Of a stretch of 64,000 bases of DNA, positions 20,513-31,399 are shown piece after piece. Position numbers and translations under genes: made by a program. Origin of the DNA: a phage; the sequence record OZ335962.1; one strand, written 5' to 3'. Position 1 is the first letter of the stretch, and each line of letters starts with the position of its first letter. Below the pieces are notes generated by a model. It was not told the DNA's origin. It searched no databases and saw nothing but the letters and a program-made list of their open reading frames with translations.

Positions 20513-20977
20513 TTAGAATGGCCTATCAGAAAAAGAAATTTGAGTTTCAAGCCATTCAATATATTCTGCCGCAGCTTGCATCAAATTTCCTTCATAACCA
20601 TCGTTATTTTCTTGTGCAGCTAATTTAGCTAATGCGTATGAAATGCGTTCACCTTGAAAAGCGGCTTTAGGTTTATGAATAACTTGATCAACTCGTTCTA
20701 CAACTTCTTCAATTTCGCCATTTTCTGCTGATTCAGTATTCCACAAGCACCAATATGTAATTGGCTTATCATAGATGTTAATAATCTTTCCATCAGAAAG
20801 TTCAATTTCAATAATTCCAGTATCAGGTTCTATGTCATCTTCACATTCTTTTACAAGTTCACGAACTTTAAAGACAGTACCTGCACTAAGTTCCGGCCAG
20901 TAATTACACAGCCCTTTATCAGCACGATTAATTCTAAACCACTTATCTACTGCAATCATGTCCCATCTCCATATCAA
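20513..20977 (-). CDS. hypothetical protein at the T4 pin position
   Basis: 154-aa acidic ORF immediately downstream of gene 49 where T4 encodes Pin; identity not verifiable from sequence alone. Confidence 0.4.
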   Translation of the reverse strand: MIWRWDMIAVDKWFRINRADKGLCNYWPELSAGTVFKVRELVKECEDDIEPDTGIIEIELSDGKIINIYDKPITYWCLWNTESAENGEIEEVVERVDQVIHKPKAAFQGERISYALAKLAAQENNDGYEGNLMQAAAEYIEWLETQISFSDRPF

Positions 20978-21082: not shown

Positions 21083-21430
21083 TTATAGCGTAATCCATTC
21101 TCGTACTGTCTGAGTTACTACACGTTCACGGGGCTCGACTAGTTCAACAGTCGGAACTGCATAATACCAGTCAGAATGATAAGAACCTGAGCGAGATTCA
21201 TTTACAGACACATGAACGTTATGTTTTGGACTAAAATAAATGCACTGCCGGTATTGACATTTGCCGTCTTGTACCCAATCTTCTATTTCGATAGGTTTAA
21301 GATAATCTGAAAAATCGAAATCATAATTTTCTGAAAATGCATCATGGTCTTCAATGATTTCACCCAGAACTGCATCAACATCGTAAATCATATTTACCCC
21401 AGTTTGACCATACAATCGCCATATTTCCAT
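21083..21430 (-). CDS. hypothetical protein
   Basis: 115-aa ORF (49.x-like). Confidence 0.45.
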   Translation of the reverse strand: MEIWRLYGQTGVNMIYDVDAVLGEIIEDHDAFSENYDFDFSDYLKPIEIEDWVQDGKCQYRQCIYFSPKHNVHVSVNESRSGSYHSDWYYAVPTVELVEPRERVVTQTVREWITL

Positions 21431-21609
21431 TTAGAAATAGACTTTTCACCATTAAAATAATAAACTTCGAGTTTAGCACGATTATTTTTAATTTGAATAA
21501 CCTTGGCTGTCATCAAAGTTCCATACCCATAATAAACTGCAACCTCATCACCTACATATACCGCGCTTCCGCGGTAGTCATGGATATAATCAGTTCCTTC
21601 GAGCATCAT
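21394..21609 (-). CDS. hypothetical protein
   Basis: 71-aa ORF (49.x-like). Confidence 0.4.
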   Translation of the reverse strand: MMLEGTDYIHDYRGSAVYVGDEVAVYYGYGTLMTAKVIQIKNNRAKLEVYYFNGEKSISKWKYGDCMVKLG

Positions 21610-21870: not shown

Positions 21871-22128
21871 TTATTCCTTAATTCCTAGTACTTGTTTAAA
21901 AGTCTCGTCGTAATCAAGACTTTGGCCCGTTTGTTCTTTATGTTTGTATATAATATCACTTATTTCTGATAGCATATTTTTATATGAACGAGTTAAAGCA
22001 GATTTAAGCACGCTGTATCTATCAGGAAATTTACCGTGTTCATTATAATACGCTATTGCTAATTCACGGACTGCCTTTTCAGCAATCTCCATATATTCTT
22101 TACGCTTGGTCATTTTCTTCTCGGTCAA
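21871..22128 (-). CDS. hypothetical protein
   Basis: 85-aa ORF. Confidence 0.45.
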
Positions 22129-22417
22129 ATCGGTGTTTGCAATGACGGCATTTATAACGAAGATTACTAGTCTGCCAATGAACTAATTGTACCTGTTCAG
22201 TACCGCATTCAGGACAATTAGGAACGTTTTTAGAAGCCCTTTCGCGACGTTCAACCATAGCCATAATGGCATCCCAAGCTGGAGGTTTAAAATCTAAATC
22301 GTCACAACCATGAATCTTTCCACGCATTTCCAGATCGTCTTCTTCACCAGCCATAATAATTTTAATTAGACTGGAATTACTTGAAGCTGCAATATCTTCT
22401 AATAGACGCTTTTTCAT
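22100..22417 (-). CDS. hypothetical zinc-ribbon protein
   Basis: 105-aa ORF with CPECG...CRHCKH cysteine pairs. Confidence 0.45.
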
Positions 22418-23343
22418 TTCAGCACCTCAATAGCATTACGTAAACCATTTGCTTTTGCATTAAGAGCTTTTAACAATTTGGTGTGTTCGGCAATCTGGGC
22501 TTCAACTTCAATCAAACGAGCATTGAGATATTCACGTTCTTCGCTCAAGTTATCAATCTTTTCTACTTTAGGCTCTTTTACAACTGTCTTATATGTATTA
22601 GGGTTCTTCAGTTTAATTAGAATGCGTGAACTGTATAACATTGAACCATTATCTTCGGTTTCGTCATACATTTCTACTACGTCCATGATTTTTAACATCA
22701 TGCGAAGTTTATAAGACAACGAACGAATAGTTTTGTTGTGCTTATTAATTTCTTTAGAGTTCATGGTGCCGAGATTACGTGAGTAATAATAAGGAACCTG
22801 GATATTAATTAATACTGATGAACCACCTGGCTTGTGTGTTACTTCATCAGCAATAACCCAGTCCTTAACATGAACTGTATTTGTACGGTCATCACCCGCG
22901 GTAAACAGTTTGCGAGCATGCTTAAAAAGCATATTCACTTGGGTATTGAATTGACAAGCAAATTTATCAGCAAATTTAGTTTCAGGAATGGTAGATAGCC
23001 AATCAGCTAAATGGGTCTTTTTAACATCGTTAACAATAGTAAATTCAACCAAATCGGTTATAGATGTCGCAGATTTAATGAAGCTCGGCTTCATAAAGTT
23101 TTTAATGTTATCACGAGCTACAGTAGAAGATAACATACGAGAACGTTTAAACCATTCAAGCAAATTGCCTAATGAATGAGAATAGGCGTTCTGAGTATCT
23201 TTACAGATATGATTTTCCTGGCCAACATATTGAAGGAAATCACGAAGAATATTATTGATTACTGCTCTGTGTCCGATCTGATAATTACGATGTTTAGTAA
23301 TAAGACTGTCAAAATAATCAATATAATGTTTACGAGTTTTCAT
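22414..23343 (-). CDS. paralog-family protein 1 with C-terminal coiled-coil
   Basis: 309 aa; N-terminus MKTRKHYIDYF resembles that of the ORF at 24455-25480; C-terminal heptad-rich segment. Confidence 0.55.
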   Translation of the reverse strand: MKTRKHYIDYFDSLITKHRNYQIGHRAVINNILRDFLQYVGQENHICKDTQNAYSHSLGNLLEWFKRSRMLSSTVARDNIKNFMKPSFIKSATSITDLVEFTIVNDVKKTHLADWLSTIPETKFADKFACQFNTQVNMLFKHARKLFTAGDDRTNTVHVKDWVIADEVTHKPGGSSVLINIQVPYYYSRNLGTMNSKEINKHNKTIRSLSYKLRMMLKIMDVVEMYDETEDNGSMLYSSRILIKLKNPNTYKTVVKEPKVEKIDNLSEEREYLNARLIEVEAQIAEHTKLLKALNAKANGLRNAIEVLK

Positions 23344-23395
23344 GTTCTTCTCACTTGGTTAATGATTTATGCTCCGAGCCATCCTTGGCTTTAAA

Positions 23396-24427
23396 TTACT
23401 TAATTAATTGTAAAGCTTGTTCAAGACGATCTAGGCGATTAACAGATTCTTCCCAAATCCTTTTAGCCTGCTCATAATCTTTCTGCGCTTTATTAGAAAT
23501 TTCTAGAACTTCTTTATAAGCTTTTTCTAGTGCAATAACTTCTGGACGAATTTCTACCGGTTCAGGTGAATCGTCAAGACATTCCATTAGTTCCTCAAGG
23601 GTAGTTTCTTCTTTAGGAGTATTCACAATTTCATCACATTTTTGTTGGTAAATTTCTTTATCAGTCGGTGAGTACGCACACTTTACTTCACGGAGACTAA
23701 CTACAATTTTATATCCTTCCCAACCGCATATATTCTTAAAAGGATAAGTATGAATATTTTCTACTGTTTCCATACAAAGTAATGCGGTCTCTAACTGACG
23801 AGTTATATCGCTAGCAATTGAGAAAAATTTATTAATGTTCTTTTGATTAGCTTCTGGTGTAAAAAATTCATAATTCACAAAAATAGCTGCTTTATTTTTA
23901 TCAAGCTCATATTCTTTTATGATAATCATATCAGAAGCCCAAGGATGGATTTGACGATAATCACCATAGCATAATTTAGAAGCTGATTTTAGAAGTTGCT
24001 TCTTGAAAAGTCTGAAATTACTAATCCAACGACGAGTAAAAATATTCTCAGGGTCTTCTTTATTATTAAGATGATAAGAATTAACATCACCGAACCAATT
24101 ATATCCTACTACATCTTTAGTTCGTTTAATTTCTTTCCCAAATTTACTAAGAATATCTCTGTTGACTAAGTATGAAAGAAGACGAGAACCTTTAAAGGTT
24201 TCCTTAATATCATCTTTATATTCGCAACTAGAAATTTTATGAACTTCATGAATAAATTTGTCGGAAGAAACAATACTTGCATCAGTATTGTTGAGCCACT
24301 GATTGATAATAGAAAGAACACTATTCTGACTAGACATAGATTTAACTTTATCATCAATAACGCTATTGAATGATTTGATATATTCGTTACGAGTCATATT
24401 AATCTCCTCAGTAGAAAGTAAGAACAT
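23396..24427 (-). CDS. paralog-family protein 2 with C-terminal coiled-coil
   Basis: 343 aa; shares the W..F..F(K/R)KQL...AS(K/R)L block and C-terminal coiled-coil with neighbours. Confidence 0.55.
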   Translation of the reverse strand: MFLLSTEEINMTRNEYIKSFNSVIDDKVKSMSSQNSVLSIINQWLNNTDASIVSSDKFIHEVHKISSCEYKDDIKETFKGSRLLSYLVNRDILSKFGKEIKRTKDVVGYNWFGDVNSYHLNNKEDPENIFTRRWISNFRLFKKQLLKSASKLCYGDYRQIHPWASDMIIIKEYELDKNKAAIFVNYEFFTPEANQKNINKFFSIASDITRQLETALLCMETVENIHTYPFKNICGWEGYKIVVSLREVKCAYSPTDKEIYQQKCDEIVNTPKEETTLEELMECLDDSPEPVEIRPEVIALEKAYKEVLEISNKAQKDYEQAKRIWEESVNRLDRLEQALQLIK

Positions 24428-24454
24428 TATACCACATCCTTGTGGCGAAGTAAA

Positions 24455-25480
24455 CTAGTTTAGTGCATTTAGTGCATTGTTCAGTTTAGAACGTTGCTTC
24501 GTGAGATTTTTGACTTTTTCTTGAGCTTTTTCTAGTATCTTTTCAGCTTCTAACACTTCATTAGTTGCTTTAATGAGTTCATCATCTACTGCCTTGATAG
24601 ACTTCTCAATCGCATCTGCATGCCATTTTTCAACAGGTTTAAGACTCGGATTTTCAACAGGAAGAAAATTCGCTTTATTGAATTTCCATGCATCCTTATT
24701 ACCTGAACTATACATCCAAAATTTAGGATCGTTTGATGAGTAATTGGATAAATTTAAGTTATAGTTATCTTGTACTTCCTGCTTTTTCTCTTGCGGGATT
24801 TCGTCCTTTCTCAAAAAATCATATTTAAATGAAACGATCATATCAAGTTCATACGTTGTTGTATGTTCCCAATTTCGCTCAAAATGAGGTAAAATCTTAG
24901 ACTGAACCGCGGCAACTACATCCATATACTTAAATGCTTCTGTCAACTGTGATTTAAGGCATTCACAAATTGAAAGAGAATTTTTTGTATTAGGTTTAAA
25001 GCTAATTCGTGCAGTTCTGTTATTTTCTTTTAATGGTCTTACTTCCATCTGAAGAGTATAACCATCAAATTTCAGATTCTTTAAGTTAATATCAGAACCT
25101 TTTAATCGACTCGCAATTGATAAAATTTGTTTTAATTGTTTACGGAATAGAGCAATAAATCTCCATTCAATACGATAATGATTTGGATTGAAAAATCCAG
25201 ATGATAAATCGACCTTACTTTGACCAACGCCTTGAACAAATAGAGGATTTTTATAATCAATAGTTTTACAGAAATCGGTGAGCTGCTCACGAGCAGTCAT
25301 TTGTGTAATATACCCCGCTTTACTAAAATGACGTAACCATTCACTGCTATTCATATATTTAAAGTGAATATCACTATTAACTTTATCAGGGTCTAAATTA
25401 TTTTGACACAAAAATGTCATAACATCACGAGTATAGCTGGCATTACGAACCATATCTTCAATTTGAGAACGAGTTTTCAT
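24455..25480 (-). CDS. paralog-family protein 3 with C-terminal coiled-coil
   Basis: 341 aa; conserved block RIEWRFIALFRKQLKQILSIASRL and C-terminal coiled-coil. Confidence 0.55.
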   Translation of the reverse strand: MKTRSQIEDMVRNASYTRDVMTFLCQNNLDPDKVNSDIHFKYMNSSEWLRHFSKAGYITQMTAREQLTDFCKTIDYKNPLFVQGVGQSKVDLSSGFFNPNHYRIEWRFIALFRKQLKQILSIASRLKGSDINLKNLKFDGYTLQMEVRPLKENNRTARISFKPNTKNSLSICECLKSQLTEAFKYMDVVAAVQSKILPHFERNWEHTTTYELDMIVSFKYDFLRKDEIPQEKKQEVQDNYNLNLSNYSSNDPKFWMYSSGNKDAWKFNKANFLPVENPSLKPVEKWHADAIEKSIKAVDDELIKATNEVLEAEKILEKAQEKVKNLTKQRSKLNNALNALN

Positions 25481-25488
25481 GGTGTTCC

Positions 25489-26400
25489 TTAAGATTTAAG
25501 TAAATCAACAATTTTAATTAACTTTTCACGCTCAGATTTAGCTTTACTACTCAGTCCAGATAGTCTGAAAATTTCATCATCATATTGTTGAATGGAAATA
25601 TTCAGCTCTTCAATCTGTTTATTAAAATAATCAATTTGTTCAGAATGTTTTTCGTTACTACGAACTGGTACAGGTTTCGTAGGCAATGTAGTTGAACTGG
25701 ATTCATCCGGGCGATAAATTAAAATACAACTTGAACCAATAGGGCATTTTGCACCAGATGAATATTCTAATGTTCCAGCTTCTTTTAAAACTTCAAAAGC
25801 TAAACAGAGATGATGCCCCATATTAACATAATCTGTGGAGCGAGCTCTGATGTAATAATCATCGCCACGAATACTAAATTTAAAGCATTTAAGGTCTTCC
25901 GTATTATTGGTCTTAAAAATCATTTGTTTATCTAGACCTTTAGCTAATCGAGCGCCTAATGCTAATAATCGTCGTTGATTTTCCCACAAATCCACAATCA
26001 TTTGATCGAATGATAATTTCGGCATTAGTCGACCATAAAGGTCATATCCTTTATTATAATTACGAAGGATTTCACTCGCGTTAATACGAGACAATGCTCC
26101 AATTTTATTAAGAGCTTTCATAATGCGATTAGATAAACTCATTCCAGACCCATTTGTTCGCTGTAAATGTTTTTCTAATCCAAATCCAATATCAACTTTA
26201 AACTTATCTAAAATTTCTGCATGAACATCTCTGTCGATAACATTCAAATCCAAAGTTGGGTTAAATCTATGAAAAAATTTATCTGGCTCTGCACTGCGAA
26301 ATACAGTCCATTCATTCATCATTTTTTTATTAACTAAAGATTTAATTACTGCATTGACATTATTAATTACTACTGACATATTTTCCTCACTCAATTTCAA
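25489..26400 (-). CDS. paralog-family protein 4 with C-terminal coiled-coil
   Basis: 303 aa; block LWENQRRLLALGARLAKGL and C-terminal coiled-coil. Confidence 0.5.
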   Translation of the reverse strand: MKLSEENMSVVINNVNAVIKSLVNKKMMNEWTVFRSAEPDKFFHRFNPTLDLNVIDRDVHAEILDKFKVDIGFGLEKHLQRTNGSGMSLSNRIMKALNKIGALSRINASEILRNYNKGYDLYGRLMPKLSFDQMIVDLWENQRRLLALGARLAKGLDKQMIFKTNNTEDLKCFKFSIRGDDYYIRARSTDYVNMGHHLCLAFEVLKEAGTLEYSSGAKCPIGSSCILIYRPDESSSTTLPTKPVPVRSNEKHSEQIDYFNKQIEELNISIQQYDDEIFRLSGLSSKAKSEREKLIKIVDLLKS

Positions 26401-28879: not shown

Positions 28880-29143
28880 TTATTTTAATGTTTGCCAAAT
28901 TTTTACTGCTTCGCGACGAGATACTTCTACAGCTCCAAGTTCTACGGCTTTTTGGCGTCGGCGAGCATGTAAGTCATAATGTTTAATGCGTTTATCTTGA
29001 AACCAAGAACGTTTCATTCCTATTGCTTCTGCCATTTTATGAAGCTCTTCAATATCTCCATCAGTGAACATATGACAATTTTTAGTTGGATGACCGCGAA
29101 GTTTCCATCCATGATTCATTAAAACATCTACGTAAACTGTCAT
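28880..29143 (-). CDS. hypothetical protein
   Basis: 87-aa ORF, conserved-looking small domain (VYVDVL..GW..RGHP..CHM). Confidence 0.45.
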   Translation of the reverse strand: MTVYVDVLMNHGWKLRGHPTKNCHMFTDGDIEELHKMAEAIGMKRSWFQDKRIKHYDLHARRRQKAVELGAVEVSRREAVKIWQTLK

Positions 29144-29290
29144 TGATTCTGCTCCAAATATGTTTCTATAATTTTCTGAGCGAGATAAACTGCGTTATCT
29201 TCAGTTGCATCTTCTAAGAAATTTTCAAAATAAGCTGAAATTTCTTCTGTATCAATCAACTTTTTTACTTCAATTAACGTAGTTTTCATT
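29141..29290 (-). CDS. small acidic protein (49 aa)
   Basis: Below track cutoff; ATG 29290 directly downstream of an early-type promoter; translated by eye as MKTTLIEVKKLIDTEEISAYFENFLEDATEDNAVYLAQKIIETYLEQNQ. Confidence 0.4.
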
Positions 29291-29323
29291 TTATTCCCCA
29301 AATCCGTATCAGTTGATAGTTGT

Positions 29324-29403: not shown

Positions 29404-30417
29404 TCATTTATAATAACTTCGATGGTTTTCAAGATAAATCCTCTCAAGGAAGTCATCCCAGAAACCCATGTCTACTTTTTGCTGCATACCGTTCTTAGAA
29501 GCTTCAATGGAAGCTGCTTCTACTTGATCGACTACATCTTCCAAAAACTCTTGAACAGTTTTAAATGGATGTTTACCCAACTTCACGTCGAGAATAAATG
29601 GAGCATCTTGAAGTGGATAGACTAAGTCACCAGTTTTGTAAATTTCCAATAGTTGGAGTCCACCACGGCAAGCATGACTCAGAGCTTTCCAGTCAATGCC
29701 CTCATTAGCTTCGGCCTTACGAGCGCGTTCGCCGTATTCAGCATCAAGTTTATTCAAAGATTGCTTAAGCTCGATAAGAGAAAGCGTTGTTTGATATTTA
29801 CGACCCAACACGGTGTAGAACGTTTGTGGTCCTGTTTTCTCATGATTATGGAATACCCATTCACAGAATTCGTTCTCTGGAAGACGATGCTTAATATCTT
29901 CAACTTTAGTTCGACGCTGCTTAATGGAACCGTCTTCTTGGTAATCAACCCATTGCTCAGGGATTTGATTAACTACTTTCAATACATCACGTAATGCGGC
30001 CAAACGAGAACCCTTGACACCATATTTAGAAGCTTGCTTGCGAACATATCCTAAATAGGATTTCATGTTAGTCGTATAAAAACGAGAACGATTGTCTTGA
30101 ATAAACTTCCATACATCAGGCAAATCAGATTTAACTACCAGTTCAGGTGGAGTATGGAGCATATCCAATGCTACAGTTTCACCATCTGCTGCTAATTTAA
30201 AGAAATACTTAAGACTGTATAGTTCATGGTCAATATCATCTTTAGTGTTTTTAGATGATGTGTTGTTAGTGTTTTTACTCATATGCTCTTTAACATTTCC
30301 GATAAGAATATCACGAGCAGGAGGAACAAAGATTTCTTTAAAATCTACATCAGATTCTGGAGTAGAAGTTCCATAAAGATGACTACCAAAATAGCTTTTC
30401 ATTACTGTTTTCATCAT
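29404..30417 (-). CDS. putative nucleotidyltransferase (Pol-beta superfamily-like)
   Basis: 337 aa; N-terminal GSHLYGTSTPESDVDF resembles the GS...DxD nucleotidyltransferase motif; terminator hairpin downstream. Confidence 0.45.
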   Translation of the reverse strand: MMKTVMKSYFGSHLYGTSTPESDVDFKEIFVPPARDILIGNVKEHMSKNTNNTSSKNTKDDIDHELYSLKYFFKLAADGETVALDMLHTPPELVVKSDLPDVWKFIQDNRSRFYTTNMKSYLGYVRKQASKYGVKGSRLAALRDVLKVVNQIPEQWVDYQEDGSIKQRRTKVEDIKHRLPENEFCEWVFHNHEKTGPQTFYTVLGRKYQTTLSLIELKQSLNKLDAEYGERARKAEANEGIDWKALSHACRGGLQLLEIYKTGDLVYPLQDAPFILDVKLGKHPFKTVQEFLEDVVDQVEAASIEASKNGMQQKVDMGFWDDFLERIYLENHRSYYK

Positions 30418-30875
30418 TCAGCCTTATATTCAATAACAGGACATACTTTAGCTTTACGCGCTTTTAAAAATTCGACGATAATAGATTTCTTGGGTTGAAT
30501 AGGAGGTAAACCTTTATACGCCCTATCAATATTTTCTACATGTAAAGCATAATCCTTTTTCCATTTATAATCTTTATATTTTTCATGCAGTTGTGCAGGA
30601 ATAACAAATGAACCAATAATAAGTAAAACAAGCAAAATGGCAAGTATAAATGCTGATGGAATAAGAGTCCATAAACTACCAAAAATAAGCCATTTCTGTA
30701 TGATTTCTGCACAGATAATAGTTAGACCTGCGAGTATAGTACATCCGAAAAAAGAAACGAAAAATGCAGGGATAACAATAGACCAAAAATATGCACAAAG
30801 TGTCTTAGGTCGTTTCCATTCGTCGTTAAACATTTTGAATAATTTATAATGCCAAGAGTTTTCATTAATAATCAT
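30414..30875 (-). CDS. hypothetical membrane protein
   Basis: 153 aa with 2-3 predicted transmembrane helices. Confidence 0.5.
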   Translation of the reverse strand: MIINENSWHYKLFKMFNDEWKRPKTLCAYFWSIVIPAFFVSFFGCTILAGLTIICAEIIQKWLIFGSLWTLIPSAFILAILLVLLIIGSFVIPAQLHEKYKDYKWKKDYALHVENIDRAYKGLPPIQPKKSIIVEFLKARKAKVCPVIEYKAE

Positions 30876-30877
30876 AA

Positions 30878-31399
30878 TTATCCTTTCATTGAAGGTGTAA
30901 CAGTTGTTAAATACTTAATCATAGCTTCAGCTTCTGATTTTGATAATGAAATTTCTCCATTATTTTGACGAATAGAAATAAAATCCGGATGACGGTCACC
31001 ACCAGCTTTTAAAACACACATATAAGTATCAGTTTCATCTTCAATATTTGAAATGATTGAAGCAGTTCCACATGAATGTGGTTTTTGATAAACTAATACA
31101 GCTTTTCTTCCACCGTTTGACTGTTCATAAACTTTTAATACATCAAACAAATCACTTCTTTTATCAATAGCTAAGATGTTGTTTTCATCTTCAATGTTAA
31201 ATCCTTCGGATACTTCATAAAGTGTCACCCATAAATCGCCAATATCAATAACAGCGTTCACTTTTCCATGACTTTCAAGAGCATGACAAATTTTCTTGAT
31301 TTCATCATAACTCATTTTAATAATATCATCTCCTTGAATAAGAAAGATGTCATTTTTAAATTCAACACGAATTAAACCGCTTTCACTTGAAATAAACAT
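30878..31399 (-). CDS. hypothetical protein, paralog of the next ORF
   Basis: 173 aa; C-terminal EAEAMIKYLTTVTPSM resembles EAIALKTYLDSVIPTM of the upstream ORF. Confidence 0.5.
   Translation of the reverse strand: MFISSESGLIRVEFKNDIFLIQGDDIIKMSYDEIKKICHALESHGKVNAVIDIGDLWVTLYEVSEGFNIEDENNILAIDKRSDLFDVLKVYEQSNGGRKAVLVYQKPHSCGTASIISNIEDETDTYMCVLKAGGDRHPDFISIRQNNGEISLSKSEAEAMIKYLTTVTPSMKG

Follow-up and report, generated by a model that had tools for sequence, protein, structure and literature searches.

The nrdC.3 to nrdC.6 gene array of a T4-like phage most likely encodes a small family of anti-immunity proteins

What do four large, mutually similar genes contribute to a phage when they stand in tandem between its nucleotide-metabolism genes? 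The question is raised by a 64,000-nucleotide stretch of phage DNA (sequence record OZ335962.1; hereafter the window), in which a first-pass annotation had picked out four tandem open reading frames (ORFs) on one strand, read them as the product of diversifying duplication, guessed at an anti-defence role and set them apart from the genes of T4. All four ORFs are confirmed, on the minus strand, although two had been given starts that are probably too far upstream. We call them A (22414..23343, 309 amino acids), B (23396..24397, 333 amino acids from the ATG at 24397), C (24455..25480, 341 amino acids) and D (25489..26379, 296 amino acids from the ATG at 26379). Here, we show that A, B, C and D are the orthologues of T4 nrdC.3, nrdC.4, nrdC.5 and nrdC.6, respectively, and we argue that it is most likely a small protein family directed against host immunity that the array encodes.

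The window is that of a Tequatrovirus and is collinear with T4 from nrdG to vs.1. Megablast with the 3,987-bp array segment matches 657 phage records, the top one at 97% identity. In BLASTP comparisons, A is 61% identical to T4 NrdC.3 (E 1e-134), B is 91% identical to NrdC.4, C is 91% identical to NrdC.5, and D is 97% identical to NrdC.6 over 259 amino acids. These are one-to-one best matches, and the four genes keep their order and strand between nrdC.2 and nrdC.7. Given this orthology and collinearity, the earlier statement that the ORFs are not a T4 gene set is wrong. Orthology to characterised nrdC.x genes had also been named in advance as grounds for abandoning the paralog proposal; the orthology is evident, and characterisation extends to one gene of the four, nrdC.5. 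With respect to family databases, C matches Pfam DUF7235 (PF23882) with 410 bits against a cutoff of 30, the alignment covering residues 1–341 of the protein and positions 1–307 of the 307 in the profile. A and B both match phrog_1435 over their full length (1.2e-116 and 3.2e-164), and relatives of B carry PF26897 ('Phage_T4_Y04OP'). D matches phrog_2257, likewise over its full length, at 1.9e-151, and its relatives carry PF26899.

Are the four genes related to one another? A and B are clearly paralogous: BLASTP aligns them over 226 amino acids with E=2.6e-8, and hhalign of the family profiles gives a probability of 98%, or 98.3% when the coiled coil is left out. The corresponding values involving C are lower (BLASTP B–C, E=0.04; hhalign B–C 84%, A–C 66%). 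An alignment of A, B and C contains four collinear common blocks plus the C-terminal helix, and the motif block quoted in the first-pass annotation as evidence of shared sequence does align (RRWISNF.../EWRFIALF..., and LWENQRRLLALGARLAKG). We conclude with high confidence that A, B and C form one paralog family.

The position of D is harder to establish. By BLASTP, D has no significant match to A, B or C, direct hhalign against them yields probabilities of only 0.3–15%, and both PHROGs and Pfam keep D in a family of its own. On these grounds D could be no true paralog at all, its similar layout of a helical part, a small sheet and a coiled coil having arisen by convergence; the family would in that case number three, with an unrelated gene beside it. 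Because D was undetectable by direct comparison, intermediates were sought. A profile of A, B and C returned only 18 matches from 1.84 billion representative proteins, two of which are divergent full-length proteins, P0237 from a Klebsiella Marfavirus and P0239. By tblastn and locus retrieval, one gene each was found in phages Marfa, IME523 (Kanagawavirus), PM2 (Mosugukvirus) and KP1 (Jiaodavirus), directly upstream of the nrdC.2 homologue. A hidden Markov model (HMM) of the D family scores 28 bits with the protein of IME523 and 23 bits with that of PM2. The IME523 protein matches those of Marfa (BLASTP 1e-15 over 257 residues) and PM2 (2e-19), and the Marfa protein is matched by the B-family and C-family HMMs at 23–28 bits. 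The bridging proteins score significantly, in this way, against both the D side and the A/B/C side. A bridge profile trimmed of linker and coiled coil gives 96.6% with B, 94.6% with C and 91.8% with D, and D matches the A/B/C profile extended with the bridges at 86%, aligned on two conserved helix-pair motifs.

A profile made from the single-copy proteins only leads to the same place. Searched against every window ORF of 70 or more amino acids (185 in total), with reporting at E<=1, it finds exactly the four array ORFs (C 9.5e-13, B 2.9e-9, A 1.9e-6, D 1.7e-4); D is the only window ORF besides A, B and C that it retrieves. When the coiled coil is cut and the globular part alone is used, again only the array ORFs are found (B 4.5e-9, C 1e-8, A 4.5e-7, D 3.4e-4). 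The single-copy profile has 0 matches in 3,700 shuffled ORFs, and with it no further array copies were found elsewhere in the window. A Foldseek search with the AlphaFold2 model of D against viral models (BFVD) ranks nrdC.6 orthologues first; the next matches, all full-length uncharacterised proteins with E from 2e-6 to 1e-3, come from PM2, IME523, Acj9, Acj61, Cronus, Mineola and fHe-Yen9-01. These belong to the group of single-copy proteins that match A/B/C-family members by sequence. Finally, D always lies next to the other copies, with strand and gene order unchanged. Taking bridging relatives, profile comparisons and predicted structure together, we consider it likely that D is a distant member of the family, and we regard convergence in an unrelated neighbour as improbable. 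The proposal of a tandem paralogous family is thus upheld, firmly for A, B and C and as a probability for D. Candidate extra paralogs in the single-copy phages were also examined: the ORFs of about 260 amino acids that precede the single-copy genes of IME523, Marfa, PM2 and KP1 are unrelated, as is the ORF upstream of P0239.

AlphaFold2 models were obtained for C (predicted local distance difference test, pLDDT, 71) and D (pLDDT 77). The model of C begins with a globular part (residues 1–227; 24800..25480, minus strand), in which a helical subdomain is followed by a beta-beta-alpha-beta-beta subdomain. A linker (residues 228–284; 24629..24799, minus strand) with pLDDT of 26–49, presumably disordered, leads into a long C-terminal helix or coiled coil (residues 285–340; 24461..24628, minus strand) with a heptad score of 0.85. 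D ends in a helical hairpin or coiled coil (residues 243–295; 25495..25653, minus strand), modelled as helices 243–272 and 278–295, and heptad scoring marks a corresponding segment at about residues 259–309 of A (22417..22569, minus strand). Heptad scoring is positive at the C-terminus of 4/4 proteins and the models place helices there in C and D, in agreement with the heptad-rich ends noted at first pass. The C and D models have the same order of helices and strands; gaps in the alignment show that the linker differs in length and sequence among the paralogs; and a terminal L..A(L/I)..LK motif is common to A, B, C and the single-copy relatives. The predicted common architecture consists of about 225 globular residues, followed by a linker that is variable and modelled with low confidence, and at the C-terminus an amphipathic helix about 50 residues long. 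In the superfamily alignment (27 sequences), only two leucines reach 80% identity, both in the terminal helix, and no polar residue is conserved, from which we infer that the proteins are non-enzymatic. We also note a protein of 173 amino acids (P0235) in which an nrdC.5-type helix nearly identical to that of the window follows about 108 N-terminal residues of unrelated sequence. This fusion suggests that the C-terminal helix may be a portable interaction module.

Known domains offer little further guidance. Neither of the two family profiles searched matches a PDB sequence at E<0.1. The array proteins have no family in NCBIfam, and in Pfam none whose function is known. Many GenBank records label nrdC.3–.6, nrdC.8, nrdC.10 and nrdC.11 'thioredoxin'. 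For A–D there is no thioredoxin or glutaredoxin match in Pfam even at E up to 1, and the predicted secondary structure of C and D differs from the thioredoxin fold; the label appears to have been propagated from the positional name nrdC.x. A tyrosine-recombinase N-terminal SAM-like domain (Phage_int_SAM_1/XerD) was considered for A, the only ORF to show it, and rejected: the Pfam E-value is 0.07, the NCBIfam score is 18 bits against a cutoff of 279, and the match is reproduced in only 1/28 family members. Weak single-sequence matches to PHL (A), DUF3905 (B) and Cas6b_C (C) were likewise not reproduced across the family.

The place of the array between nrdD/nrdC and tk might be taken to mean that its products are host-takeover factors, either docking on RNA polymerase through a fold like its alpha-dimerisation region or serving as accessories of the nucleotide-synthesis complex. 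A structural match to the RNA polymerase alpha N-terminal/RPB11-like dimerisation fold does exist, but it is confined to the small beta-beta-alpha-beta-beta sandwich, has 8–15% identity and is not reproduced by the D model. Since it ranks alongside de novo designed sheets and phage tail terminators, we interpret it as probably a generic fold. The nrdC.x names, for their part, are positional only, with no thioredoxin or reductase domain behind them, and the rescue by nrdC.5 described next is direct evidence of a defence-related role. We regard host takeover as a very improbable function for the array.

The most informative data on function come from T4. A T4 clone carrying a deletion no longer plates on ECOR17, owing to Dsr1 (Srikant et al., eLife 2022, PMC9391042), and nrdC.5 is sufficient in trans to restore T4 plating on Dsr1-carrying cells (PMC9391042). 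T4 nrdC.5 belongs to the early genes; the phage can do without it in laboratory hosts and requires it on the host carrying Dsr1, a SIR2 NADase defence protein (PMC9391042). A 2026 preprint describes E. coli Dsr1 as a SIR2 effector joined to a tetratricopeptide-repeat (TPR) sensor homologous to that of Avs7, names the phage major capsid protein as its trigger, and reports that the sensor is common to many other defence proteins (PMC12803255). No publication dealing with how NrdC.5 works, with nrdC.3, nrdC.4 or nrdC.6, or with the kinship of the four genes came up in our literature search.

We propose that the family proteins would act as stoichiometric binders, made early and present before the late capsid protein, and that their C-terminal helix probably oligomerises them. 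NrdC.5 would bind Dsr1 directly and so prevent its activation or its hydrolysis of NAD+. The site that we favour would be the TPR sensor of Dsr1, by analogy with DSAD1, a protein of phage SPbeta, which in DSAD1 structures reportedly occupies the C-terminal sensor of DSR2. nrdC.3, nrdC.4 and nrdC.6 would have diverged to neutralise other variants of Dsr1 defence, or other defences. We hold these elements with differing degrees of conviction. The package as a whole, a family of early, non-enzymatic, probably oligomeric binders that block defence proteins, is the interpretation that we favour, with moderate confidence. That all four proteins have anti-defence roles is about an even bet, and direct binding of NrdC.5 to the Dsr1 sensor, for which the analogy with DSAD1 is our guide, is put forward as a tentative suggestion. 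Going further, NrdC.3–NrdC.6 might be pseudo-ligands that bind without activating, each matched to its own branch of the TPR sensors that detect capsid (Dsr1, Avs7 and relatives with NADase, nuclease or kinase effectors), with duplication and allele replacement tracking the diversification of these sensors in Enterobacteriaceae and nrdC.2 maybe acting as a partner. We consider this elaboration unlikely.

Oligomerisation could also take a different form, in which the similar C-terminal helices hold the paralogs together as a single hetero-oligomer that works as one unit. The members do have a similar amphipathic terminal helix with the L..A(L/I)..LK ending, their genes are neighbouring and co-transcribed early, and the helix fusion in P0235 suggests a portable interaction module. 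Plasmid-borne nrdC.5, however, was enough by itself to rescue the deletion phage in the presence of Dsr1; the source does not say which of the other copies this phage retained. Moreover, phages thrive with one, three or four copies in differing combinations, and the T4 reference lacks the nrdC.6 helix. We therefore think it quite improbable that the paralogs form one joint complex, and return to the proposal of individual binders.

If these proteins do block host defences, how has the locus evolved? The superfamily is confined to T4-like phages, and the gene order is always nrdC.6, nrdC.5, nrdC.4, nrdC.3, then nrdC.2. Four copies are found in T4, in the window and in most Tequatrovirus loci. 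Three is the number for the genera Mosigvirus, Dhakavirus and Gaprivervirus, the last two without nrdC.3, and PD112 and RB69 have three with nrdC.4 missing; a single copy stands upstream of nrdC.2 in Kanagawavirus, Mosugukvirus, Marfavirus and Jiaodavirus. With one, three and up to four copies across genera, the array grew by tandem duplication and divergence. Each paralog lineage is kept across genera at 40–50% identity. Within nrdC.3, three allele classes can be told apart by their identity to the window protein (95–99%, 75–78% and 60–62%). The T4-type allele (T4, T2, T6) has a synonymous divergence (dS) of about 1 from the window, with flanking genes 87–99% identical, a pattern that suggests either allele replacement or old polymorphism.

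The array is also prone to internal deletion. In ACG-C40 (L008, 6790-7219), nrdC.6 is intact and the only other traces are an N-terminal remnant of nrdC.5 and a C-terminal remnant of nrdC.3. P0119 is an nrdC.5::nrdC.3 chimera, and nrdC.4 is split into two ORFs in an IMG/VR phage (L016, 7923-8982). In RB69 (L007, 5973-6875), nrdC.5 ends in 55 residues that show no alignment to the coiled coil of the remaining members; this end looks frameshifted and may be another natural loss of the helix. The T4 reference itself (NC_000866, 14067-14894) has a one-nucleotide deletion in nrdC.6 (GAGCTG-ATATTTC versus GAGCTGAATATTTC; window 25489-25640). The resulting frameshift costs the protein its C-terminal coiled coil, leaving 275 amino acids versus 296, and downstream of the lesion the DNA still encodes the helix out of frame.

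Ratios of nonsynonymous to synonymous substitution (dN/dS) were computed against the window, with nine Tequatrovirus loci as the population-scale comparison; the sample was limited to these because an IMG/VR scan with nrdC.6 gave four loci. The ratios are 0.09–0.34 for nrdC.3–.5 and 0.05–0.13 for nrdC.6, as against 0.00–0.08 for nrdD, 49, nrdC.8, nrdC.10 and nrdC.11, with one nrdD comparison at 0.17. The array evolves faster than its neighbours. Of the 'diversifying' duplication originally envisaged, the relaxed or faster evolution holds up, and the stronger sense of the word does not, with gene-wide values of 0.05–0.34 that never exceed 1. A copy number of one to four, raised dN/dS, deep nrdC.3 alleles, chimeras and frameshifts are arms-race-like, and the original guess at anti-defence fits both these dynamics and the action of T4 nrdC.5 against Dsr1 (PMC9391042).

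The same observations can be read in another way. Only nrdC.5 might be a counter-defence gene, with nrdC.3, nrdC.4 and nrdC.6 being duplicates that have other functions, or near-neutral copies in the course of being lost. No phenotype for these three genes was found in the searched literature, and copies are often missing, split or frameshifted, as in PD112, RB69, ACG-C40, L016 and T4 nrdC.6. Most of the sampled Tequatrovirus genomes, on the other hand, have all four genes intact and under purifying selection (dN/dS 0.05–0.34), the conservation of each lineage across genera speaks against neutral decay, and variable presence is just what host-range and anti-defence genes typically show. We judge it rather unlikely that nrdC.5 is alone in this role, and prefer a family-wide function in counter-defence.

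Several points nevertheless weigh against this preferred interpretation. Among the four genes, only nrdC.5 has an experimental phenotype, and no published link connects nrdC.3, nrdC.4 or nrdC.6 to defence. Gene-wide dN/dS is below 1 for all four, with no gene-wide positive selection, and nrdC.6, being more conserved than the other copies, is a poorer fit to an arms-race gene. The tie of D to A, B and C is transitive and modest: to the low direct hhalign probabilities must be added a score of only 14 bits with the single-copy profile. The missing polar conservation could partly stem from a difficult alignment. Oligomerisation and direct binding to Dsr1 are both steps that we infer.

Reading the genes correctly requires a closer look at their starts. 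In their longest forms, B runs over 23396-24427 (343 amino acids) and D over 25489-26400 (303 amino acids, from a TTG). For D, the start at 26400 is probably too long, and the ATG at 26379 (MSVVINN) likelier; a GAGGAAA Shine-Dalgarno sequence lies 4 nucleotides 5' of it, and T4 nrdC.6 uses the same start. The upstream start of B is doubtful because the ATG at 24427 lies inside the -10 element of a promoter and a GAGGAG Shine-Dalgarno sequence precedes the ATG at 24397 (MTRNEY). The latter is probably the start in use, and the resulting 333-residue form matches T4 nrdC.4. The promoter, found by promoter scan between C and B (24426..24454, minus strand), is of the T4 early type (GTTTAC-N18-TATAAT, with gtgg before the -10 element), and a promoter at the same site is annotated as early in phage ASO78A. 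The MKTR N-terminus reported for two of the proteins is that of A and C; with the corrected starts, M(K)TR is found in 3/4, as B begins with MTR. Immediately downstream of A is its conserved neighbour nrdC.2 (22100..22417, minus strand), encoding a 105-residue zinc-ribbon protein with weak Pfam zinc-ribbon matches. The first nucleotides of nrdC.2 and the last of the family member before it coincide over 4 positions (22414-22417 in the window), and this start–stop overlap is present in 9/9 loci (the window, T4, PD112, dhabil, C6, IME523, Marfa, PM2 and KP1). nrdC.2 and the last family member are probably a translationally coupled pair conserved across genera.

The block around the array is rich in host-interaction and counter-defence genes. 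About 1–2 kb downstream lie orthologues of T4 gp49.2 (21083-21430, 96% identity) and of Pin (20513-20959), by its annotation an inhibitor of host Lon protease. Inhibition of the OLD defence nuclease by 49.2 has been shown for the T6 protein (PMC13096335). The first-pass annotation expected content different from that of T4 at nrdC.x/mobD. nrdC.3–.6 are present, as shown above, and the real differences lie outside the array: there is no mobC, no mobD, no nrdD intron and no I-TevII, and several small ORFs take up other positions. An ORF of 71 amino acids stands in place of T4 49.3 (21394-21609), a DUF4031 ORF of 87 amino acids and one of about 50 are inserted between nrdC.10 and nrdC.11 (28880-29301), and two ORFs of 153 and 173 amino acids occupy the position of the T4 mobD homing endonuclease (30414-31399).

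T4 is the reference phage, yet nrdC.3, nrdC.4 and nrdC.6 have no assigned function. Their family link to nrdC.5 yields three concrete candidate counter-defence genes, with a common architecture to dissect (putative globular recognition part, linker, putatively oligomerising helix). Nature supplies variants for experiments: the two deep nrdC.3 alleles, T4 nrdC.6 with its frameshift, and phages that carry one, three or four copies. Since the Dsr1 sensor is reported to recognise the major capsid protein and to be shared by many other defence proteins, the family could reveal how one phage makes an entire class of such sensors blind to capsid. Annotations in several hundred phage genomes would be corrected by this result as well.

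It is useful, finally, to set these findings beside what is already recorded. C occupies the same position as T4 NrdC.5, is 91% identical to it and likewise matches DUF7235 over its full length; the Dsr1 phenotype is that of the T4 protein. The study of T4 NrdC.5 gives no mechanism and does not mention kinship to nrdC.3, nrdC.4 or nrdC.6 (PMC9391042). In the databases, nrdC.3 and nrdC.4 are already grouped (PHROG 1435, PF26897), while nrdC.6 stands apart (PHROG 2257, PF26899), as does DUF7235. These three separate families of unknown function are linked here through bridging proteins, profiles and predicted structure, and the union of nrdC.3–.6 and their single-copy relatives in one superfamily with a defined architecture appears to be new. 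A parallel in effect is DSAD1, which is reported to counteract DSR2 and repress its NADase (PMC10981675, PMC11087589): both it and NrdC.5 are phage proteins that defeat a host defence protein of the SIR2 NADase type. No similarity to DSAD1 in sequence or fold was found. The counter-defence clusters of T-even phages (the dmd-tifA-adfA 'anti-TA [toxin–antitoxin] island', 49.2 against OLD, pin against Lon) resemble the nrdC array in being early, non-essential, variable and located in hyperplastic regions. The genes of those clusters are small and mutually unrelated, whereas the nrdC array consists of large tandem paralogs with a common multi-part architecture.

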